In this document: positions 41,654-55,976 of the stretch, in pieces
Position numbering within the stretch: position 1 is the first letter of the stretch
How the letters are laid out: each line of letters begins with the position of its first letter
DNA from: Hyphomicrobiales bacterium
GTDB taxonomy: Bacteria; Pseudomonadota; Alphaproteobacteria; Rhizobiales; Xanthobacteraceae
Assembly: GCA_003140315.1 (NCBI GenBank)
Contig: PLJS01000101.1
Coordinates: 4,252-68,251 of the forward strand
DNA: 64,000 nt
Direction of reading: 5' to 3'
Made by a program: the position numbers and the translations under genes
The notes under the pieces: model-generated
Database searches by the model: none
Seen by the model: the letters and a program-made list of their open reading frames with translations, nothing else
Told to the model about the DNA's origin: nothing

Positions 41654-42076
41654 CGTCACGTTGGTTTTCGGAGCGACATTCCGGACGCTTGTCGCGCGTT
41701 TGAGGGTAGAAGACACGATCCACACAGACGGGGAGAAGCGCGCGTCTTCAAGAACATGCTGATGTAGAGGATAGTTCCGCCACGATGGCGATCGTTAGTG
41801 GTAGCTCGTTCAACAAGTGGTGAAGCCGGTGGGGCGCTTTTGATGCGCGTCTGCGTTCTGGTACCGTTAGTCACCCATCTCGCTGGGGATTCGCCGGCAC
41901 AGGCCGCCGCGTACGAAACAACGCTCAATCGCTATCGCGGCGCCGCAACGTTTTTCTGCTCGTCCCTTGTTCGGCGTGATGCTGGGAATCGGAGAGAACG
42001 ACACACACCCTTCGGCACTTGAGGAGCCTGCGGCCTGGGTTCCTGTCGTATCGCTTTGCAAACTTCGGAGTCCGAG

Positions 42077-42922
42077 ATGGACGAAAATGCCGACCAGAAG
42101 AATTCGCCGGCCTATCGGTTGGCAGCGCTGGACCCGGACTTTCTGCTCGGCGACTCCATGCGCGGGGTGCGGCTGCAGCTCGAATATGAAAAAGCAGAGG
42201 AACGGCTTCGAGCTTGGGTCGTGCGCTCGACCATCGTCGTATTCGGAAGCGCACGGGTTCTTCCACGCGAGAGTGGCACCGAGGCTGTTTCTACAGCACA
42301 ACTCCCGCCGGGAGCGGTGCCGCGTCGAGGCGAACAATCAGCGCGATGGTATGACGAGGCTCGGCGCTTTGGGCGAATCGCGTCCGAGCGAGGCGGGGCG
42401 CTCCGGCCGCGCGATGGCATCCGCGACAATGTGATCGCAACCGGCGGCGGTCCCGGCATCATGGAAGCGGCAAACCGTGGAGCTTCGGACGCGGGAGCGC
42501 CGTCCATTGGCTTCAACATCGGGTTGCCGCATGAGCAGGAACCCAACGGCTATTCGACACCGGACTTGACTTTTCAGTTCCATTATTTTGCGGTGCGCAA
42601 ACTTCATTTCGCCATGCGCGCTAACGCACTTGTAGTTTTCCCGGGAGGCTTTGGCACGATCGACGAACTCTTCGAGTTACTGACGCTGATGCAAACCGCG
42701 AAGATGCCTGCGATTCCCGTCGTTCTCGTCGAGAAACAATATTGGACTCGCGTCATCAATTTCACGACGCTTCTCGACGAAGGAATGATTGCGCGTGCCG
42801 ACCTCGATTTGTTTTCCTATGCGGCCGATGCCGAGGATGCCTGGCAAGAGCTCATCAGGCGTGATTTGAACAGCGGGCCGCGTCCGGCGGGATACCCCTC
42901 AAAGATGACCCGACCTAAATAA
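42077..42922 (+). CDS. LOG-family (TIGR00730-type) nucleotide/cytokinin-riboside 5'-monophosphate phosphoribohydrolase homologue
   Basis: In-frame ATG 42077. Motifs TGGGPGIMEAANRGA and PGGFGTIDELFE. G+C drops part-way through the gene. Confidence 0.85.
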   Translation: MDENADQKNSPAYRLAALDPDFLLGDSMRGVRLQLEYEKAEERLRAWVVRSTIVVFGSARVLPRESGTEAVSTAQLPPGAVPRRGEQSARWYDEARRFGRIASERGGALRPRDGIRDNVIATGGGPGIMEAANRGASDAGAPSIGFNIGLPHEQEPNGYSTPDLTFQFHYFAVRKLHFAMRANALVVFPGGFGTIDELFELLTLMQTAKMPAIPVVLVEKQYWTRVINFTTLLDEGMIARADLDLFSYAADAEDAWQELIRRDLNSGPRPAGYPSKMTRPK

Positions 42923-42953
42923 GATTGAATTCGTTCCGGAAGGACCCCAATCG

Positions 42954-44114
42954 ATGACGCTGAAAACAACACTCCTTGCGGGAAACGCCATTGAGGTGGC
43001 GTTTCTGCAACAGCAGGGGCGCGATCCATTCACGGTAACACAGGAGCGGACGGCGCAGATTCAAGACGTGGCCAGTTGGATCGCCAGCTTCATCAGTGAA
43101 GCGAAATCAACGCTCGACATCGCGATCTACGACTTCCGCCTCCATGACGAGGCGGCGACTATCGTCGGGGATGCGTTACGGTCGCAAGCGCGCAAAGGGA
43201 CCCGCATACGCATTGTTTATGACCATTCCACCGATTCCGGCCTCGACTCCAGCGTCATACCCACTGCTGCCCCTGCGCATCTTGAGGCAGATCAGAAGCC
43301 GCCGGGGACCGACAGCTTTGTCCGCTCTTTTTCGGGTGTCGCAGAGTTCAAAGGTATCACCGGATACCGGGTCCTCATGCACAATAAGTACATTCTTCGT
43401 GATGCCGACGCCACGAATGCAGCTGTTTTCACCGGCTCTTCCAACTACACGAACGACTCCTGGGGGCTTCAAGATAACAACCTGTTGTGTCTGCGTTCGC
43501 AACAACTAGCATCATACTACGCGCAGAATTTCACCGACCTTTGGTCCCGCGGAAAGATCGTCGATTCGACTGGCCGCCGCGAGACAGGGACCATTCAGCT
43601 AAATAACGTGCCGGTGACGATTGCGTTTACGCCGGGTGAAAGCCCGGCGGTGTTGAAGGAAATCGTCGGAGCAATTGCGGCTGCCCGAAATCGGCTTTAC
43701 GTAGCGTCCGTTGTTCTGTCATCGGGACCGATTCTCGCAGCTCTGTCGGAGGCTATCGACCGAGGCTTGCCATTGGCTGGTCTGTTTGATGGCCCACAAA
43801 TGGACCAAGTCGAACGGCAGTGGAGGGCCGCGAATGTCGGAGCGGATAAGGTCAATACGTGGCAGAAAGTGGCGCACTACTTGGTACGCAAGAATTCCAT
43901 CCCCTACGATCGTCACAAGCCGTCCCAACCGCACAATTTCATGCACAATAAGCTTGTCGTCGCGGACGATACTGTTGTGACCGGGAGCTTCAATCTGTCC
44001 AATCATGCCATGGGCAACGCGGAAAATGTTCTGCTCATACGGGATCAGGCGCTCGCCGAGATATACGCGCGATATATTCAACTTTTGATGGCAAACTACG
44101 CCGTCAACTCATAA
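42954..44114 (+). CDS. phospholipase D superfamily protein with two HKD motifs
   Basis: 386-aa ORF with HNKYILRD...GSSNYT and HNKLVVADD...GSFNLS motifs. No signal peptide or TM segment is apparent. G+C is visibly lower than in flanking genes. Confidence 0.85.
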   Translation: MTLKTTLLAGNAIEVAFLQQQGRDPFTVTQERTAQIQDVASWIASFISEAKSTLDIAIYDFRLHDEAATIVGDALRSQARKGTRIRIVYDHSTDSGLDSSVIPTAAPAHLEADQKPPGTDSFVRSFSGVAEFKGITGYRVLMHNKYILRDADATNAAVFTGSSNYTNDSWGLQDNNLLCLRSQQLASYYAQNFTDLWSRGKIVDSTGRRETGTIQLNNVPVTIAFTPGESPAVLKEIVGAIAAARNRLYVASVVLSSGPILAALSEAIDRGLPLAGLFDGPQMDQVERQWRAANVGADKVNTWQKVAHYLVRKNSIPYDRHKPSQPHNFMHNKLVVADDTVVTGSFNLSNHAMGNAENVLLIRDQALAEIYARYIQLLMANYAVNS

Positions 44115-48190: not shown

Positions 48191-49096
48191 ATGCCAGTTG
48201 ATTTTCCGCAGATTGGGCTTCGCCTGAAGGCGCATCGGTTAGGGGCGGGATTGTCGCCCGACGAAGCGGCCGACCGTCTTGGTGTGTCTCGCGCCGCTCT
48301 TTACAACTATGAGCGGGGATCCACACCCATCAAAGTCGAGACGTTGGAGCGGATGGCAGAGATACTTGGCGTTTCTCTGCCGTCGCTTCTCGGTGCCGGC
48401 ACGGAGTACTTCTCCACTGCGATCGCGTATTTCGAGCGTCTCAGGCAGCTTGAAGCGCAATCGGAACGAATCACGCTCTTCTATGAGCCGATCACCTTCC
48501 TCCTGACGTCGGAGGATTTCTCGCGCACGCTGCGCATGATGCTGCTCGAAGGATTGCCTGAGACGGTCGCCGACCGGGCGAAGGCCGTCGATGACATCGA
48601 CCGGCTGCTGGTCGTGCTCGAGCAGCGGCGCTCCGTCCTGATGCCGGGCGGTCCGACGATTGCCGGCCTGATCGGATTGACCGAGGTGAGGCGGCTCCTG
48701 CGCACCGGCCTGATCGGGACGTACGCCTTGAAAGACAAGCAGCGGGAGGCTCGGCGACAGCTCGCACGGCAGGAGGTGGAGCGGACGGCCGCATTGATGG
48801 AGCGGGAACCGCTCGGCATGCAGACCGGCGTCATTGATGATACCGTCCCGAACCAGACGTTCGAGATCTGCCGATTGCGCGACCGAACATCGCTTGTCGC
48901 CGTCAGCCCCTTCCGCCTCGGCGAGTTGCCGAACGTGAGGCTCGGCGTGGCGTCGATCACCGCGGCCGCCGACGCGGTCGAGCTCTACGAGCGCCTCGTT
49001 GCGGCGATGTGGCAGCGCGCGGCGAAAGGCGCGGCCGGCGCAGCCTTGTTGCGCCGCGCGATCGCGGAGCTAAAAAAACAGGCACAGCCGAGCTAA
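48191..49096 (+). CDS. XRE-family transcriptional regulator with a long uncharacterised C-terminal domain
   Basis: N-terminal HTH_3 pattern (LKAHRLGAGLSPDEAADRLGVSRAALYNYERGSTPIKVETLERMAEILGVSL), followed by ~230 aa with no motif I recognise. Confidence 0.8.
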   Translation: MPVDFPQIGLRLKAHRLGAGLSPDEAADRLGVSRAALYNYERGSTPIKVETLERMAEILGVSLPSLLGAGTEYFSTAIAYFERLRQLEAQSERITLFYEPITFLLTSEDFSRTLRMMLLEGLPETVADRAKAVDDIDRLLVVLEQRRSVLMPGGPTIAGLIGLTEVRRLLRTGLIGTYALKDKQREARRQLARQEVERTAALMEREPLGMQTGVIDDTVPNQTFEICRLRDRTSLVAVSPFRLGELPNVRLGVASITAAADAVELYERLVAAMWQRAAKGAAGAALLRRAIAELKKQAQPS

Positions 49097-49104
49097 AAAA
49101 CATC

Positions 49105-49120
49105 ATCTAACGATTTAGAT
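49105..49120. promoter_or_regulatory. 6-4-6 palindrome ATCTAA-CGAT-TTAGAT, candidate operator between the XRE regulator gene and the MFS-pyr-like operon
   Basis: A perfect inverted hexamer pair in an AT-rich patch, 9 nt after the regulator stop and about 80 nt before the MFS start. Confidence 0.3.
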
Positions 49121-49201
49121 TTGTCTTTCCATTTGGATTATCCCGTCTTAGCCTCCTTCTCGGCCTCGTCTCCGATGAGACGTTTGCTGAGGGAGGGCGT
49201 C

Positions 49202-50452
49202 ATGGCGCACGGCGTAACGTTAGAACCGACCGCCGATGAGGCCGCCGGACCTCAGACTGTCGATGCAGCCGCGTGGAAAGCCCTTATCGGCTCCGCGCTC
49301 GGCTACGCGATGGACGGTTTCGACCTGCTGATCCTCGGCTTCATGCTGCGCATGATCTCGGCCGATCTCCACCTAACGCCGGCCGAGGGCGCGTCGCTTG
49401 TCACCGCAACGCTGATCGGCGCCGTCATCGGCGGCGTGGTCTTCGGCATGTTGTCCGATCGGCTCGGCCGCGTTCGTGTCCTCACCTGGACGATCGTGCT
49501 GTTCGCGGTGTTTACCGGCATGTGCGCTCTGGCGCAGGGGTATTGGGACCTGCTCGCCTATCGCACTATCGCCGGCGTCGGGCTTGGCGGCGAGTTCGGA
49601 ATCGGCATGGCGCTGGTCGCCGAAGCCTGGCCAGCCTCAAAGCGGGCGCGCGCCTCCTCATATGTCGGTCTCGGCTGGCAACTCGGCGTTCTTGCCGCCG
49701 CTATCCTGACGCCGATCCTGCTCCCGATCATCGGCTGGCGCGGCATGTTCGCGGTCGGCATCTTCCCGGCGGTCGCGGCCTTCTTCATCCGCCAGTCGCT
49801 GCATGAGCCGGAAGTCTTCGTCCAGAAGGTCGAGAAGGCGCCGGAGCACAAGAACTCGCTTGGCCTCCTCGTGAAGGACGCCGAAACGACCAAGCTCAGC
49901 ATCGGCATGATCATTCTCTGTTCGGTGCAGAACTTCGGCTATTACGGCGTGATGATCTGGCTGCCGAATTATCTGGCGAGCCGGTTCGGCTTTGGCCTCA
50001 CCCAATCCGCCGTCTGGACCTCGGTGACGATCGCCGGCATGGCAGTCGGCATCTTCGCCTTCGGCCACATCGCGGACCGCGTCGGTCGCCGCCCGGCCTT
50101 CTTCGGCTACATGCTGATGGCCGGCGTCATGGTCGTGGTCTATTCGCGCCTGACCGATCCGATCGCGCTGCTGATCGCGGGTGCCGTGATGGGCTTTTTC
50201 GTCAACGGCATGCTCGGCGGCTATGGTGCACTGATCAGCGAGCTGTTCCCGACCGCGGCGCGCGCGACGGCGCAGAACGTCCTCTTCAACATCGGTCGTG
50301 CGGTTGGCGGAACGGGGCCGATCGTCGTCGGAGCCGTTGCGGCGGCCCTCGGCTTTGATACCGCGATCGCGCTGCTTGCGTTGCTCTACGGGCTCGACAT
50401 CGTGGCGCTCCTGCTGCTCATCCCGGAACGCCGCGGCGCGACGCTCTCGTGA
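49202..50452 (+). CDS. MFS transporter
   Basis: In-frame ATG 49202 after GGAGGG (an alternative in-frame ATG is at 49175). About 12 hydrophobic segments with MFS motifs LSDRLGRVR and ADRVGRRP. Confidence 0.85.
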   Translation: MAHGVTLEPTADEAAGPQTVDAAAWKALIGSALGYAMDGFDLLILGFMLRMISADLHLTPAEGASLVTATLIGAVIGGVVFGMLSDRLGRVRVLTWTIVLFAVFTGMCALAQGYWDLLAYRTIAGVGLGGEFGIGMALVAEAWPASKRARASSYVGLGWQLGVLAAAILTPILLPIIGWRGMFAVGIFPAVAAFFIRQSLHEPEVFVQKVEKAPEHKNSLGLLVKDAETTKLSIGMIILCSVQNFGYYGVMIWLPNYLASRFGFGLTQSAVWTSVTIAGMAVGIFAFGHIADRVGRRPAFFGYMLMAGVMVVVYSRLTDPIALLIAGAVMGFFVNGMLGGYGALISELFPTAARATAQNVLFNIGRAVGGTGPIVVGAVAAALGFDTAIALLALLYGLDIVALLLLIPERRGATLS

Positions 50453-50482
50453 TCGTCCGCGCTTGCCGGAGGGTTGATCTCG

Positions 50483-51355
50483 ATGCATGCCGAAGAGCCC
50501 GCGATGGGAGGGCACGCTCCGCCTATTCCGGATAGCACGCTCCCTGGCGGCGAATGGTCGGCAGCTATCGCGGCGGAGCTCGCCGAGGTTCTCGCCAACA
50601 CGGCGATCAATACCGAATACCGCCATCTGGTGGTGAAGTGCGGGCGGCCGGCGCTCGACGCGGTGCCGGGACAGTTCTTTCAATTGCTGTGCCCGCAGCC
50701 TGCGGGCGAGCAGCCCTATCTGCGCCGTCCGATGAGCCTGTACGGCGTTGACCCGGACGCCGGCACTGTCGAGTTTCTCTACAAGATTGCGGGCGCGGGC
50801 ACCCGCGGTCTCGCGATGCTGCATCCCGGCGACCGGCTCGACATCATGGGTCCGCTCGGCGTCGGCTTCTCGCTCGATCCGGCCTGGAAGCACATCGTGG
50901 CGGTCGGTCGCGGCGCTGGACTTGCCACGCTCGCGCCGCTCGCCAAGGCGGCGCGCGCCAAAGGCATGCACGTCACCGCAATCTTCAGCGCGCGCCGGCC
51001 GGATCTCGTGCTCTCGGTCGAGCTCTTCCAGAGCCAGGGCGCGACCGTCATTCCGGTCACCGACACCGAGCGCACCAGCGGTCCGGCGCATGTGGAGCGG
51101 CTCCTGCGCGGACTGATCGCCGAGCAGCGCTGCGATGCCTTCTTCACCTGCGGTTCGAGCCGACTGATGCGCGTGCAGCAGCGCCTCGCGACGGAGTTCG
51201 GTCTGCGCGGACAAGTTGCGATGGAGCAGCAGATGGCCTGCGGGATCGGCCTTTGTTTCTGCTGTGTGCGCGATTTCAACGTCAAGGGCGAGATCGTTCA
51301 CCGCCGCGTCTGCTGGGATGGTCCGGTGTTCGACATCCTGGAGGCGATCCCGTGA
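50483..51355 (+). CDS. PyrK-like FAD/NAD-binding, 2Fe-2S electron-transfer subunit (dihydroorotate dehydrogenase B type)
   Basis: In-frame ATG 50483 after GGAGGG. Ferredoxin-reductase-type fold (RRPMSL, GPLG) and a C-terminal cluster motif MACGIGLCFCCV typical of PyrK. Confidence 0.75.
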   Translation: MHAEEPAMGGHAPPIPDSTLPGGEWSAAIAAELAEVLANTAINTEYRHLVVKCGRPALDAVPGQFFQLLCPQPAGEQPYLRRPMSLYGVDPDAGTVEFLYKIAGAGTRGLAMLHPGDRLDIMGPLGVGFSLDPAWKHIVAVGRGAGLATLAPLAKAARAKGMHVTAIFSARRPDLVLSVELFQSQGATVIPVTDTERTSGPAHVERLLRGLIAEQRCDAFFTCGSSRLMRVQQRLATEFGLRGQVAMEQQMACGIGLCFCCVRDFNVKGEIVHRRVCWDGPVFDILEAIP

Positions 51356-51368
51356 TCGGCCGCGCCCC

Positions 51369-52319
51369 GTGACCGATCTTTCGGTGCGCATCGGTTCGCT
51401 GACGCTCGCGAACCCCGTGATGCCCGCCTCCGGCACCTTCGCCGAAGGTCTCGAGCGGGTCATGGATTTCAGCAGACTCGGCGCTTTCGTGACGAAGACG
51501 ATCACGCGCGAGCTGCGCACCGGCAATCCGCTTCCGCGCGTCGTGGAGCGCCCGGGTGGGCTGATCAATGCGATCGGCATCCCATCCAAGGGCGTTCCCT
51601 ATTTCGTCGAGCACACGCTGCCGCACTACGCGCCCTACAGCGTCCCGCTCGTCGTCAGCATCTCGGCGCCGACTGCGGAAGGCTTCGCGAGTCTCGCTGC
51701 GGAGCTCAGCGCTGTGCCCGGCATCGCGGTGATCGAGGCGAACATCTCCTGTCCGAACATCGAAGAGGACGGTAAGGCCTTCGCGATGCGGGCCGGCTCG
51801 ACCGAAGCCGTCGTGCGCGCGCTCCGCGCGGCGACGAAGCTGCCGTTGTGGGTCAAGCTGACGCCGAACACGGGCGACTTGCCTGAAGTCGCAGCGGCCG
51901 CCGAACTCGCCGGCGCGGATGCGCTCGTCGTCGCCAATACGATCCTAGCGATGGCGATTGACCTGAACACATTCCAGCCTTCGCTCGGCAACGTTATGGG
52001 CGGACTTTCCGGGCCCGCCATCAAGCCGATCGTGCTGCGGCAGGTTTATCAATGTGCCCGTGTCGTGAAGCTTCCGATCATCGGCTGCGGCGGGATAGCG
52101 ACCGCCGACGATGCGGCCGAATACATGCTGGCGGGTGCGACCGCAGTGCAGGTCGGCACCGCGACATTCGTGCAGCCGGCCGCCATGATCTCCGTCATCG
52201 ACGGCTTGGCGAAGTTCTGCGAGCGGCGCGACATCGCGCGCGTATCAGACTTGGTCGGCGCGGTACGCAACGAGGAGACCGACGAGGCGGACCTCGAATG
52301 GGTCGCGCCGCCGCAATGA
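51369..52319 (+). CDS. class 1B-type dihydroorotate dehydrogenase catalytic subunit homologue (PyrD-1B/PreA-like, without a ferredoxin domain)
   Basis: In-frame GTG 51369 within ORF 51216..52319. Motifs NPVMPASGTF, EANISCPN (active-site Cys context), PLWVKLTPN and IGCGGI. The stop overlaps the next gene's start (ATGA at 52316-52319). Confidence 0.8.
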   Translation: MTDLSVRIGSLTLANPVMPASGTFAEGLERVMDFSRLGAFVTKTITRELRTGNPLPRVVERPGGLINAIGIPSKGVPYFVEHTLPHYAPYSVPLVVSISAPTAEGFASLAAELSAVPGIAVIEANISCPNIEEDGKAFAMRAGSTEAVVRALRAATKLPLWVKLTPNTGDLPEVAAAAELAGADALVVANTILAMAIDLNTFQPSLGNVMGGLSGPAIKPIVLRQVYQCARVVKLPIIGCGGIATADDAAEYMLAGATAVQVGTATFVQPAAMISVIDGLAKFCERRDIARVSDLVGAVRNEETDEADLEWVAPPQ

Positions 52320-53575
52320 ACGCCGATGCGGACCGGATCCTGTGCGAAGAGCTGTTCGATGCATTGAGGACGGCCACGTTTGACGGCGTCGGCATCACCC
52401 GCGACGCGTACGGGCCGGGCGAATCCCTCGCGCTCGATATCGTCGAGCGCGCCGCCCGCGCGGCCGGCCTCGCGACCGAGCGCGACGCCGGCGCCAATCT
52501 CGTCGCGACGCTCCCCGGAACAGAACCCGCGCTTCCCTTCATCGCCTGCGGATCGCATCTCGATTCCGTGCCGCAGGGCGGCAATTTCGACGGCGGCGCC
52601 GGCGTGGTCGCCGGTCTTGCGATTCTCGCCGGCTTTTTGCGCGAGGGTTTCAGGCCACGACGCACGCTCAAGCTCTATGGTCTGCGCGGTGAGGAAAGCG
52701 CTTACTTCGCCCGCGCCTATGTGGGATCGAGCGCGCTGTTTGGGCAGTTGACGGCCGCCGACCTCGCGAGCCGGCACGCGGTCACTGGACGGTCGCTTGC
52801 GGATTGTATGCGCGACGTCGGTGCCGACGTCGACCGCATCGGCCATGGAGAAGCTCTCCTCGATCCCGCGACGGTCGCCGCCTGGCTGGAACTCCATATC
52901 GAGCAGGGCCCCGTCCTCGTCGCCCGCGACCTGCCGCTCGGGATCGTCACCGGCATCCGCGGCAACGTCCGCCACCGGGTCGTGGAATGCATCGGCGAAG
53001 CGGGGCACTCGGGCGCGGTCCCGCGCTGGCTGCGCCGCGACGCGGTGTTTGCCACGGCCGAGCTCATCACTCATCTTGACCGGCATTGGCGTACACTGCT
53101 CGAACGCGGCCGCGACCTCGTCGTCACATCCGGCATCGTCGGCACCGACCCGGCCGAGCACGCGATCGCGCGTATCCCGGGGATGGTGCGGTTCAGCTTC
53201 GAGGCGCGCAGCCAGAACGTCGAGACGCTGGAGGCGTTCTATGATCTCTTCTTGTCGGAATGCGAGGGAATCGGAGAAGAGCGTGGCGTGACGTTCAAGC
53301 TCGAACGCAGGATCGAATCGGCGCCGGCGACCATGGATCCGACCTGGATCGAGCGGCTGCGCGGCGCCGCCCGCTCGTTGGGCCTGCCGGACGAGACGAT
53401 TCCGAGCGGCGCCGGCCATGACGCCGCGGTGTTCGCCGGAGCCGGCGTGCCGAGCGCGATGGTCTTCGTGCGCAATGAGAATGGCTCGCACAATCCGCAG
53501 GAAGCCATGACTCTCGACGACTTCCTCGCCGGCGTATCGGTGATGCGTGCGGCGATCGCGGAGGCGGCGCAGTGA
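52316..53575 (+). CDS. M20-family Zn amidohydrolase of the hydantoinase/carbamoylase group (N-carbamoyl-L-amino-acid or allantoate amidohydrolase-like)
   Basis: In-frame ATG 52316. Motifs GSHLDSVPQGGNFDG, ELHIEQG, GEAGHSG and SGAGHDA. Confidence 0.85.
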   Translation: MNADADRILCEELFDALRTATFDGVGITRDAYGPGESLALDIVERAARAAGLATERDAGANLVATLPGTEPALPFIACGSHLDSVPQGGNFDGGAGVVAGLAILAGFLREGFRPRRTLKLYGLRGEESAYFARAYVGSSALFGQLTAADLASRHAVTGRSLADCMRDVGADVDRIGHGEALLDPATVAAWLELHIEQGPVLVARDLPLGIVTGIRGNVRHRVVECIGEAGHSGAVPRWLRRDAVFATAELITHLDRHWRTLLERGRDLVVTSGIVGTDPAEHAIARIPGMVRFSFEARSQNVETLEAFYDLFLSECEGIGEERGVTFKLERRIESAPATMDPTWIERLRGAARSLGLPDETIPSGAGHDAAVFAGAGVPSAMVFVRNENGSHNPQEAMTLDDFLAGVSVMRAAIAEAAQ

Positions 53576-54669
53576 GCCTCGATCGGATGTTTGACAGTGC
53601 GGCCGGCGCGGCAGCCAAGACGCAAGGCGATTGCATCACCATCCGTCGCCCGGACGACTGGCACGTCCACCTGCGCGACGGCGACATGCTGCGCAGCGTG
53701 CTCCCGTTCACGGCAGCGCAGTTCGCGCGCGGGATCATCATGCCGAACCTCGTGCCGCCGGTGACGACGCCCGAGATGGCCGCCGCCTATCGGGCGCGTA
53801 TCGTCGCCGCGCTGCCGGAGGGCAGCGACTTTCAGCCGCTGATGACCTGCTATCTGACCGACACCACGTCGCCCGACGCGATCGAGCGCGGCTACGCGGA
53901 AGGCATCTGGGTCGCCGCCAAGCTCTATCCGGCCGGCGCGACCACCAACGCGCACCACGGCGTGACGAGCATCATCGGCATCGCGCCGGTCCTGGAGCGC
54001 ATGGAGCGCATCGGCATGAAGCTCCTCATCCATGGCGAGGCGACCGATCCGTCGGTCGACATCTTCGACCGCGAGGCGGTTTTCATGGAGACCGAACTGC
54101 TGCCGCTGCTTGTTCGCCATCCCGGCCTGAAGGTGGTCGTCGAGCATGCGACGACGGCCGAAACGCTGGACATCGTGCGGGCGAACGCCGTGCGGGCTGC
54201 GGCGACGATCACGCCGCATCACCTCGTCATCAACCGGACGTCGATCTTCCAGGGCGGGCTGCGCCCGCATCTCTACTGCCTGCCCGTCGCCAAGCGCGAG
54301 TGCCATCGCCTCGCGCTGCGCGCTGCCGCGACCTCGGGCGAGGCGTGCTTCTTCATCGGCACCGATACGGCCCCACATCCCCGCCGCAACAAGGAACGCG
54401 AATGCTGCGCCGCCGGCGCATTCGTCGGCGCGAGCGCGCTGCAATGCTACGTCCAGGTCTTCGACGAAGAAGGCGTGCTGGACCGCTTCGAGGCTTTTGC
54501 TTCGCTCAACGGCGCGCGCTTCTACGGGCTCGAAGCGAACTCCGGAACGATCACGCTTCAACGCCGCCCGAGCCATGTGCCGCAAGCCGTGCCGATCGAT
54601 GGCGACGAGGTCGTGGTCTTTCGCGGCGGCGAGATCTTGCCATGGTCGATCGCGGAGGTGCGGGCGTGA
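53572..54669 (+). CDS. pyrC: dihydroorotase, homodimeric class II (E. coli PyrC type)
   Basis: Contains ITIRRPDDWHVHLRDGDML, MPNLVPPVTT, MTCYLTD and AAKLYPAGATTN, which closely resemble E. coli-type PyrC. There are 4-nt overlaps at both ends. Confidence 0.88.
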   Translation: MSLDRMFDSAAGAAAKTQGDCITIRRPDDWHVHLRDGDMLRSVLPFTAAQFARGIIMPNLVPPVTTPEMAAAYRARIVAALPEGSDFQPLMTCYLTDTTSPDAIERGYAEGIWVAAKLYPAGATTNAHHGVTSIIGIAPVLERMERIGMKLLIHGEATDPSVDIFDREAVFMETELLPLLVRHPGLKVVVEHATTAETLDIVRANAVRAAATITPHHLVINRTSIFQGGLRPHLYCLPVAKRECHRLALRAAATSGEACFFIGTDTAPHPRRNKERECCAAGAFVGASALQCYVQVFDEEGVLDRFEAFASLNGARFYGLEANSGTITLQRRPSHVPQAVPIDGDEVVVFRGGEILPWSIAEVRA

Positions 54670-55352
54670 CGACAAAAGACATCGGCGGCACGATCGCACG
54701 GCTGTTGCTCGAAGCGGGAGCCGTCAGGTTCATGCTCGAGCGACCGTTCACGCTGGCGGCCGGATGGGCGAGCCCGGTCTATGTGGATTGCCGCGTGCTG
54801 ATCGGTGATCCTGCGGCGCGCCGCGCCGTCACGGCCTGCGCCGTCGAGGCCGTACGGTCGGCCTTCGCGCCCGGCGAGGTAGCGGTCATCGCCGGCGCGG
54901 AGACCGCCGGCATCCCATACGCCGCGTGGCTTGCGGATGCGCTCGATCTCCCGCTCGCCTATGTGCGCAAGCGCCCGCTCGGCATCGGCCGCAATGCCCA
55001 GGTCGAGGGCGCGGACGTCGACAAGCGCCGCGTCCTTCTAGTCGATGATCTTACGACCGACGGTTCCGGCAAGGTCGCATTCACGCGCGGCCTCCGAATG
55101 GCCGGCGCGGATGTGCGCGACGCCCTCACGATTTTCTATAACGGCGTCTTTCCGGGCGTCGTGGAGCGGCTCCGGACGGAACGCGTGAGCCTTCTATCTT
55201 TGGCGACATGGGACGACATTCTCCGGACCGACGTTGGACAGCGGCTGTCGGCCGAAGACAGGGCCGTACTTCACGAGTTTCGAAACGACCCGATCGCCTG
55301 GTCCACCCGCCACGGCGGACGGAGCCTCGCAGCCACGCGCCGCGCGCGTTGA
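54666..55352 (+). CDS. pyrE: orotate phosphoribosyltransferase
   Basis: In-frame GTG 54666 (overlaps the pyrC stop). PRPP-binding motif VLLVDDLTTDGSGK and an N-terminal ..GAVRF..RPFTLAAGWASPVYVDCR pattern. Confidence 0.85.
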   Translation: MTTKDIGGTIARLLLEAGAVRFMLERPFTLAAGWASPVYVDCRVLIGDPAARRAVTACAVEAVRSAFAPGEVAVIAGAETAGIPYAAWLADALDLPLAYVRKRPLGIGRNAQVEGADVDKRRVLLVDDLTTDGSGKVAFTRGLRMAGADVRDALTIFYNGVFPGVVERLRTERVSLLSLATWDDILRTDVGQRLSAEDRAVLHEFRNDPIAWSTRHGGRSLAATRRAR

Positions 55353-55372: not shown

Positions 55373-55690
55373 TCACCGAACCGAACCACGCAAGAGGTTC
55401 TTCGAGAAAAGACGCTGCATCTGCCCCTTCAACTTCTCGATCTTCTCTTTCAGGCGGCTCGTCTTGGTCTTGAGAGCCTCGGACGGCTCTTGCCGGTCGG
55501 CACTGTCGAGCTGCTGCAGATAGCGCGCGACCCTCTCCTCTATCTGCGCCATGCGGCGCTCCGTCTTCACGCGGGTGAAGCTCTTGTCGCGGTTGTTCAC
55601 CGCCTTGAACTTGCTGCCGTCGATCGCCACGCTGGCTTAGGTGAGCAGGCCCATAGTGCGGCACAGCGCAACGAACCGGGCGCTGACCCG
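55373..55690 (-). mobile_element. internal fragment of an IS1182-family (IS5-like) transposase gene, decayed
   Basis: The translation ..VAIDGSKFKAVNNRDKSFTRVKTERRMAQIEERVARYLQQLDSADRQEP.. is typical of IS1182 transposases. There is an in-frame TAA at 55637-55639. Both the N- and C-terminal parts are missing. Confidence 0.65.
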
Positions 55691-55976
55691 CCAAATAACG
55701 ACCACCGGCTAACCAAGCCGAAGCATCCCTGGACCAATGGTCAGGTCGAGAGAATGAACCGAACCATCAAAGACCACGGTGCAGCGATTCTATTACGAAA
55801 TCCACGATCAACTCCGCCGACACCTCGCCGACTTCGTCGCCGCTTACAACTTTGGCCGCCGACTGAAGACCCTCAAGGGCCTCAAGCCTTACGAACACAT
55901 CTGCAAAACCTGGACATCCCAACCAGAGCGCTCCACCCTCAACCCGCTCCACCAAATGCCGGGACTAAACAACTAG
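55688..55976 (+). mobile_element. 3' fragment of an IS481-family transposase (rve integrase core end), frameshifted
   Basis: ..HRLTKPKHPWTNGQVERMNRTIKD.. continues in another frame as ..QRFYYEIHDQLRRHLADFVAAYNFGRRLKTLKGLKPYEHICK..HQMPGLNN. A 1-nt indel lies near 55774. No 5' part or terminal repeats are seen. Confidence 0.7.

Follow-up and report, generated by a model that had tools for sequence, protein, structure and literature searches.

Seven open reading frames (ORFs) lie on the + strand between positions 48191 and 55352 of a 64,000-nucleotide stretch of Hyphomicrobiales DNA (contig PLJS01000101.1; hereafter the window). They encode, in order, an XRE-family regulator, a major facilitator superfamily (MFS) carrier, a PyrK-like protein, a PyrD homologue, an M20 amidohydrolase, PyrC, and a PyrE-like phosphoribosyltransferase (PRT-like protein). 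The ORF list and hidden Markov model (HMM) family scans bore out this seven-gene operon, which an earlier note had read as a catabolic pathway that resembles pyrimidine biosynthesis. On balance, we favor the view that it is an inducible module that converts orotate to aspartate by running three steps of pyrimidine synthesis backwards; we infer its substrate, direction of flux, M20 activity, and regulation.

The regulator gene (48191..49096; HTH_31/HTH_3) is followed by the gene for the MFS carrier, the proposed orotate importer (49202..50452; MFS_1), for which ATG 49202 is the most likely start. The PyrK-like FAD/[2Fe-2S] electron-transfer subunit (50483..51355; DHODB_Fe-S_bind) is encoded by an ORF that opens with TTG at 50474. 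Since GGAGGG is located 9 nt upstream of ATG 50483 and the relatives are 289-290 aa long, this ATG is the most likely start. The catalytic subunit of a class-1B dihydroorotate dehydrogenase (DHOD), the proposed orotate reductase (51369..52319; NF005574), starts at GTG 51369. It is followed by the M20 carbamoylase-type amidohydrolase, a proposed ureidosuccinase (52316..53575; TIGR01879); a type II (E. coli-type) dihydroorotase, PyrC (53572..54669; TIGR00856); and the PyrE-like phosphoribosyltransferase, whose catalytic loop is altered (54666..55352; NF001729, below its cut-off). Consecutive genes from pyrD onward overlap, with ATGA at 52316-52319 and GTGA at both 53572-53575 and 54666-54669, exactly as the earlier note had described. 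Its statement that pyrB, carAB, and pyrF are missing nearby also holds for the whole window. Using E. coli K-12 queries in tblastn, we found no homologues of CarA, CarB, PyrB, PyrI, PyrF, or class-2 PyrD in the 64 kb, the sole signal being a weak match of the class-2 PyrD query to the class-1B pyrD gene itself. A scan for consensus promoters and terminators gave nothing exceeding shuffled expectation, and an Rfam scan of the window gave no match.

The two DHOD subunits differ in how closely they fit curated families. PyrD scores 345.4 on NF005574 (cut-off 269). In the PDB it is most similar to 5ue9 (240 bits), followed by 1ep1, the DHOD B of Lactococcus (234 bits), and its NISCPN motif, which contains the catalytic Cys of the class-1 pattern N-x-S-C-P-N, aligns with both. 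The PyrK-like protein exceeds the Pfam cut-off for DHODB_Fe-S_bind (43.3 > 23.9), with DHOD B PyrK structures as its best PDB matches (5ksw_B and 1ep3_B, ~100 bits). Its LRRPMS sequence (FAD motif RRPxS) and four [2Fe-2S] cysteines (CGIGLCFCC...VCWDGPVF) align with PyrK 5ksw_B. It misses every curated NCBIfam PyrK cut-off (126 against 314, 122 against 270, 121 against 219, and 95 against 224). It is a diverged PyrK-type subunit.

PyrC scores 395.8 on TIGR00856 (cut-off 292.95) and matches E. coli dihydroorotase 1xge with 414 bits, with DWHVHLRDG, MPNL, AAKLYPAGATTN, HGE, EH, and GTDTAPH aligned. The metal ligands, the carboxylated Lys, and the substrate-binding Arg, Asn, and His of 1xge are all kept (HxH-L-R, MPN, KLYPAGATTN, HGE, EH, DxAPH). 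As PyrD and PyrC both exceed equivalog cut-offs and retain their motifs, the intermediates of the pathway should be orotate, dihydroorotate, and carbamoyl-aspartate.

The M20 protein belongs to the hydantoinase/carbamoylase family (TIGR01879, 275 > 204) and scores best on NF009527, "Zn-dependent hydrolase", below the cut-off (437.2 < 461). It lies outside the groups of named specificity, as it misses AllC (199.8 < 597.75), ErtE, its third-best NCBIfam model (290.4 < 520), and NF006771 (376.5 < 399). The best PDB match is L-carbamoylase 3n5f (192 bits), and the metal and catalytic motifs GSHxDS, DG, EE, HIEQG, and SHxP align with 3n5f and 1z2l. The motifs SVPQGGN, RGEES, GIRGNxRH, and EHAxxRIPG are conserved within the clade, being kept in at least 70% to at least 97% of 83 aligned cluster-linked sequences, a set that includes the window and redundant copies. 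The pocket Asn of the pattern x-x-N-x-I/V-P ("GINVIP" in 3n5f, "TVNVVP" in AllC 1z2l) is absent. The window has Ala285 at this position, and Klebsiella and Variovorax have Thr or Ser; an invariant Arg286 stands next to it, and a downstream Arg, R298, is kept. The roles of the pocket Asn and of the carboxylate-binding R298 are those described in the literature. Together, the several Arg and His residues of the pocket, the loss of the Asn, and the adjacent Arg would be compatible with a dicarboxylate substrate.

Ureidosuccinase (EC 3.5.1.7), which converts N-carbamoyl-L-aspartate to L-aspartate, CO2, and NH3, is defined by its activity. We know of no assigned gene or reference sequence for this enzyme, clostridial included. 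A literature search, which most subscription journals fell outside, yielded no report of a ureidosuccinase gene or of a gene cluster for orotate catabolism. The genomic context of the M20 gene makes it a candidate for this role.

The last enzyme gene calls for a correction to the earlier note, which had called it PyrE and assigned it a salvage branch to orotidine monophosphate (OMP). The best PDB match of its product is the orotate phosphoribosyltransferase (OPRTase) 4ohc (186 bits), but it misses both curated OPRTase cut-offs (NF001729, 231.6 < 245; TIGR00336, 82.5 < 106.8). It keeps R99/K100 of the loop (YVRK) and the phosphoribosyl pyrophosphate (PRPP) motif VLLVDDLTTDG (E. coli D124-D125-x-x-T128). 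In the altered loop (residues 101-107, YVRKRPLGIG; window 54966-54986), Leu105 aligns with catalytic-loop Lys103 of E. coli. The residue is Leu in 67 of 67 cluster copies; it is Leu in every alphaproteobacterial cluster copy, and elsewhere Gln (Acidobacteriota copies) or Val accompanied by a three-residue deletion (Variovorax). The Lys is retained in E. coli, 4ohc, 3m3h, and seven neighboring housekeeping copies, and substitutions of K103 (E. coli/Salmonella numbering) reportedly inactivate Salmonella OPRTase. Next to the module in several Bosea-type loci is a genuine housekeeping pyrE, scoring 385.8 on NF001729 (> 245) and 115.1 on TIGR00336, so the module's own copy is a paralogue. With both cut-offs missed and the loop Lys replaced by Leu, the protein is not a standard OPRTase and the salvage branch to OMP is doubtful. 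As the most constant neighbor of M20, it is clearly under selection, and it is clearly not a routine salvage enzyme. Possibly, it is a weak or altered OPRTase that maintains the OMP supply during the destruction of carbamoyl-aspartate; alternatively, it may be a partner that senses orotate or PRPP.

The carrier was recognized by MFS_1 in the Pfam scan (166 bits). Among NCBIfam models, TIGR00895 (aromatic acid/H+ symporters) comes nearest at 320 bits, below the cut-off of 418; sialate:H+ symporters are also among the nearest models, again below their cut-offs. The protein is 67-68% identical to the module carriers of Klebsiella and Variovorax, which makes it the best-conserved protein at that distance. 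Carrier matches on a Ralstonia megaplasmid were set aside as orphan transporters, the module being absent there.

To examine the neighborhood in relatives, we scanned one genome per species with an alignment of M20 orthologues and kept the best 80 of 580 matches. The M20 proteins of these 80 loci are 62-87% identical to that of the window, the closest at 87%. Their hosts include Bradyrhizobium, Bosea, Tardiphaga, Roseomonas, Telmatospirillum, Paracoccus, Neorhizobium, Rhizobium, Rhodomicrobium, a Comamonadaceae metagenome-assembled genome, and Acidobacteriota. With the window proteins as tblastn queries, we found the same gene order in almost all loci. As this order recurs in dozens of species, chance is excluded.

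Neighbors within 6 kb of M20 were counted in 66 loci with enough flank, consisting of species loci and a few plasmid or contig loci. Recurrent families were found by ORF clustering, which gives antisense artefacts in high-GC loci, and verified with HMMs. The PRT-like gene was the most constant neighbor (94%), followed by genes for PyrD (92%), PyrK (86%), the MFS carrier (80%), the XRE homologue (59%), PyrC (41%), a protein of ~105 aa (~26%), and aspartate ammonia-lyase (15%). Of the synteny that the earlier note had proposed to test, MFS-pyrK-pyrD-M20-pyrC, all but the pyrC position is widely kept. That pyrC is not a core component is also evident from the closest relative (L004/L006, 11257-11355), in which a 32-codon ORF between the M20 and PRT genes is an in-frame fusion of the two ends of pyrC. 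In this scar, ~1 kb is missing from the inside of pyrC, yet the start and stop codons still overlap those of the neighboring genes, so that the coupling is kept. Hence a pyrC of its own is not essential to the module, as expected if a reversible housekeeping dihydroorotase can supply the step. Directly 3′ of the module in ten loci is a gene for aspartate ammonia-lyase (NF008909, 722 > 510), as expected if aspartate is the product.

Some loci depart from this arrangement. In three Acidobacteriota loci (L075, L077, and L080), the order is MFS-M20-PRT-pyrK-pyrD, with a pyrF homologue just upstream on the opposite strand; these pyr genes may be a housekeeping set to which M20 and the MFS gene are attached. 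Two Neorhizobium loci (L060 and L065), of which one is on a plasmid of 1.76 Mb, have neither the MFS nor the PRT gene in the module, which is followed by what, judging from the sequences, reads as an ATP-binding cassette (ABC) transporter, comprising a periplasmic binding protein, a permease, and an ATPase, which may replace the MFS carrier. The small protein, of ~102-108 aa, is encoded 3′ of the module in about 17-20 loci, including those of Klebsiella and Variovorax (L022, 13521-13826; L086, 12454-12780; L087, 13066-13392), and has no Pfam or NCBIfam match.

The module is also carried on plasmids of Roseomonas, Neorhizobium, and Variovorax, and a 7.2-kb version that is at least 99.9% identical throughout is present in 53-55 plasmids of five Klebsiella species. 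Compared to the window, the Klebsiella proteins are 67% (MFS), 40% (PyrK), 56% (PyrD), 49% (M20), 51% (PyrC), and 42% (regulator, full length) identical, and there is no PRT gene. As the Klebsiella chromosome carries its own class-2 pyrD, pyrC, and pyrE, the plasmid module cannot be the housekeeping set there. The order (L086, 4065-18537; L093; L094) is porin-like 421-aa protein, MFS, pyrK-like, pyrD, M20, pyrC, HTH, and 108-aa protein; the porin-like protein matches no Pfam family. In all three Klebsiella plasmids inspected, the module is flanked by an IS5-family element on one side and, ~1.4 kb away on the other, by an acquired lacY-lacZ pair. No copy of the Klebsiella module occurred in 5,426 complete E. 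coli genomes. Isolates from bovine mastitis show a strong association with the acquired lac operon (PMC12724306), and cow milk contains orotic acid at 32-36 mg/L (PMC8614319). The Klebsiella mastitis genomics literature that we checked does not mention the module genes.

These observations suggest a pathway in which the MFS carrier would take up orotate and the NAD-linked PyrD/PyrK-type enzyme would reduce it to L-dihydroorotate. A dihydroorotase, either the module's own PyrC or, where the module has no pyrC, the housekeeping enzyme, would then yield N-carbamoyl-L-aspartate. Both NAD-linked class-1B DHOD and dihydroorotase are reversible. The M20 hydrolase would irreversibly convert N-carbamoyl-L-aspartate to L-aspartate, CO2, and NH3, thereby pulling the two reversible steps, and in some genomes the adjacent aspartase would release fumarate and a second NH3. 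PyrDK, PyrC, and M20 are encoded together in one coupled operon, apart from the housekeeping pyr genes (as on the plasmids and beside the Bosea pyrE). We favor the route from orotate to aspartate because no other calls for a DHOD and a carbamoyl-aspartate hydrolase together: PyrDK would be superfluous if dihydroorotate or carbamoyl-aspartate were the substrate, and M20 would be superfluous in salvage to uridine monophosphate. The proposal of the earlier note that the operon is catabolic rather than biosynthetic thus gained from the synteny, the plasmids, the aspartase, the Bosea pyrE, and the optional pyrC, while two of its parts, the PyrE salvage branch and pyrC as a core gene, call for revision.

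Several observations weigh against this interpretation. The sequence gives no direction for the DHOD step, and the PRT-like gene, although nearly constant, fits no clear place in the scheme. The 80-locus sample, being the best 80 of 580 matches, is biased to Alphaproteobacteria. In Acidobacteriota, where the cluster adjoins pyrF, the PRT might be the housekeeping enzyme, so that the weight of the lysine loss depends on the reported mutagenesis of K103. Five loci keep M20 and the PRT-like gene with no PyrDK within 6 kb. Two of the five have the MFS gene; L038, L062, and L081 have neither PyrDK nor MFS beside the M20-PRT pair. The neighbors in four scanned PyrDK-less loci (L038, L062, L068, and L081) are unrelated genes that give no clue to the role of the PRT. 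Orotate reduction does not explain these loci unless PyrDK is encoded elsewhere in those genomes. Finally, as the PyrK-like, M20, and PyrE-like proteins all fall below the curated cut-offs of the named families nearest to them, an altered substrate is possible.

The PyrDK-less loci, two of them with the carrier, and the tight pairing of M20 with the PRT-like gene (94%) would be easier to understand if the module used exogenous L-dihydroorotate or N-carbamoyl-L-aspartate. M20, with PyrC, would free aspartate as a nitrogen source, and PyrDK would work oxidatively to feed salvage by the PRT-like protein, a direction allowed by the reversibility of dihydroorotase and class-1B DHOD. We regard this explanation as unlikely, though it fares best among the alternatives. 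PyrDK is found with M20 in 86-92% of loci, and the PRT-less versions of Klebsiella, Neorhizobium, and others retain it, where an oxidative DHOD would be purposeless if the host has a class-2 DHOD. In addition, the PRT-like protein that would receive the orotate has no OPRTase loop lysine.

A less probable explanation still is that the substrate is an orotate analogue, for example a substituted orotate, or some other cyclic ureide, for example of the hydantoin type, on which the enzymes, as diverged paralogues, would act. The three proteins below curated cut-offs would fit this idea, as would the clade-specific substitutions in the M20 pocket and the PRT loop and the fact that neither the sensor domain of the regulator nor the small 105-aa protein matches a known family. 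However, PyrD and PyrC pass equivalog cut-offs and keep every motif that aligns with solved orotate- or dihydroorotate-bound enzymes, the aspartase linkage points to unsubstituted aspartate as product, and the pyrC scar implies that a housekeeping dihydroorotase can replace the module's own.

Back-up pyrimidine biosynthesis, for example by an NAD-linked DHOD under oxygen or quinone limitation, with M20 and the MFS carrier as passengers, is very improbable: although PyrD, PyrC, and the PRT-like protein are homologous to consecutive biosynthetic enzymes, class-1B DHOD is the established biosynthetic enzyme of many Firmicutes, and pyrF adjoins the Acidobacteriota clusters, the window contains no pyrB, carAB, or pyrF, PyrC is dispensable, conservation and translational coupling tie M20 and MFS into the operon, the PRT-like protein has lost its catalytic lysine, aspartase is linked to the module, and the module is carried on plasmids of Klebsiella, a genus that has its own chromosomal pyr genes.

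The biochemistry of the favored orotate-to-aspartate route is old. The reductive orotate fermentation of Clostridium oroticum, attributed to Lieberman and Kornberg in the 1950s, reportedly uses orotate reductase (EC 1.3.1.14), dihydroorotase (EC 3.5.2.3), and ureidosuccinase (EC 3.5.1.7). That pathway reportedly has the same three reactions that we propose, in the same order, and the same type of NAD-linked Fe-S flavoprotein DHOD (class 1B). Unlike C. oroticum, the hosts of the module are mostly aerobic soil Alpha- and Betaproteobacteria, together with Klebsiella plasmids, and the module includes a dedicated MFS carrier and an XRE regulator, in most cases also a PRT-like protein, and in some cases aspartase. 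What is new is the module at the level of genes, its distribution among aerobes and on plasmids, the family proposed as candidate ureidosuccinase, and the altered form of the PRT.

The proposed pathway also resembles reductive pyrimidine catabolism (PydA or PreA/PreT, dihydropyrimidinase, and β-ureidopropionase) in that the 5,6 double bond would be reduced, the ring opened, and the carbamoyl group removed, and M20 is homologous to bacterial and yeast β-ureidopropionases (8c46 and 1r3n). The parallel between the DHOD and dihydropyrimidine dehydrogenase reaction modules has been discussed (PMC4016543), although that work does not cover the present cluster. However, the module has a true DHOD (345 bits, compared to 141 for PreA) with PyrK rather than a PreT/GltD-type partner, and it would open the ring with a type II dihydroorotase instead of dihydropyrimidinase to yield aspartate rather than β-alanine.

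The pyr operons of Firmicutes resemble the module in pairing PyrK with PyrD, with matching cofactor motifs, and in having PyrC and a PyrE-type gene in one operon. Unlike those operons, the module lacks pyrB, carAB, and pyrF, has M20 between pyrD and pyrC, possesses an importer and its own regulator, is accessory and plasmid-borne, and encodes a PRT without the loop lysine. Clusters that combine a permease with a cyclic amidohydrolase and an M20 L-carbamoylase are also known from hydantoin utilization (hyu) and from ergothioneine catabolism, where ErtE, an N-carbamoyl-L-glutamate amidohydrolase, acts on an acidic N-carbamoyl amino acid, as we propose for M20. M20 is nevertheless far below the ErtE cut-off (290 compared to 520), and the module has neither hydantoinase nor racemase; its ring-opening enzyme is a dihydroorotase, and it includes a DHOD.

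The XRE protein is the likely regulator of the operon. Its helix-turn-helix lies at residues 7-64 (HTH_31, 56.8 bits; HTH_3, 51.8 bits); the C-terminal ~230 aa match no Pfam family, and PDB matches span the helix-turn-helix only. Full-length orthologues are encoded in the modules of Klebsiella (42% identity) and Variovorax (47% identity). Between the regulator and MFS genes is a perfect 16-bp palindrome, ATCTAACGATTTAGAT (49105..49120), that is a candidate operator and, located 5′ of the MFS gene, likely the site of XRE binding. The corresponding sequences in the two closest relatives are ATCTATCGTTTTAGAT (L006) and ATCCAATGCTTTGGAT (L007); in L007, both half-sites are changed and the palindrome is preserved. 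The window palindrome is not conserved past these two relatives, and a simple half-site count gave no common operator motif.

The flanks of the window module are unrelated to it. Upstream is an ABC transporter, and downstream are mobile-element remnants that end the module (55373..55972), followed by acyl-CoA-type catabolic genes. The remnants include a fragment of an rve_3 integrase core (26.2 bits, just under the cut-off of 26.5; E 7e-6), and a segment of ~280 bp (55695-55972) has 815 matches spread over 533 plasmid records, mostly from Rhizobium. The window lacks the genes for aspartase and the small protein that come after the module in relatives. Some 4-6 kb upstream of the operon (42056-44114) are genes for a LOG/"lysine decarboxylase"-family protein (PF03641) and a PLD-like protein (PF13091), separated from it by the opposite-strand ABC transporter; we saw no link between this pair and the operon.

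If the favored reading is correct, the locus defines a conserved operon that provides common soil bacteria with a carrier, a regulator, and enzymes for using orotate. Current annotation of these genes as pyrimidine biosynthesis or "Zn-dependent hydrolase" misleads metabolic reconstructions, in which a second biosynthetic pyrD, pyrC, and pyrE may be credited to the host. M20 provides a concrete and easily testable gene candidate for an enzyme that was reportedly described in the 1950s and has no known assigned sequence, and the PRT-like protein illustrates cleanly how selection can maintain a biosynthetic enzyme fold that has lost a key catalytic residue. More tentatively, the M20 clade as a whole could be the ureidosuccinase family and the module a widespread, horizontally mobile orotate pathway of aerobes, with the PyrE-like protein being a repurposed OPRTase fold that acts as a sensor of orotate, PRPP, or OMP or as a partner of the hydrolase instead of in salvage. 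The same tentative extension would make the pathway a second milk trait on the Klebsiella plasmids that also carry lac, so that both lactose and orotate would be used: the location of this version beside the mastitis-linked lac genes suggests an unrecognized nutritional trait for growth in milk.

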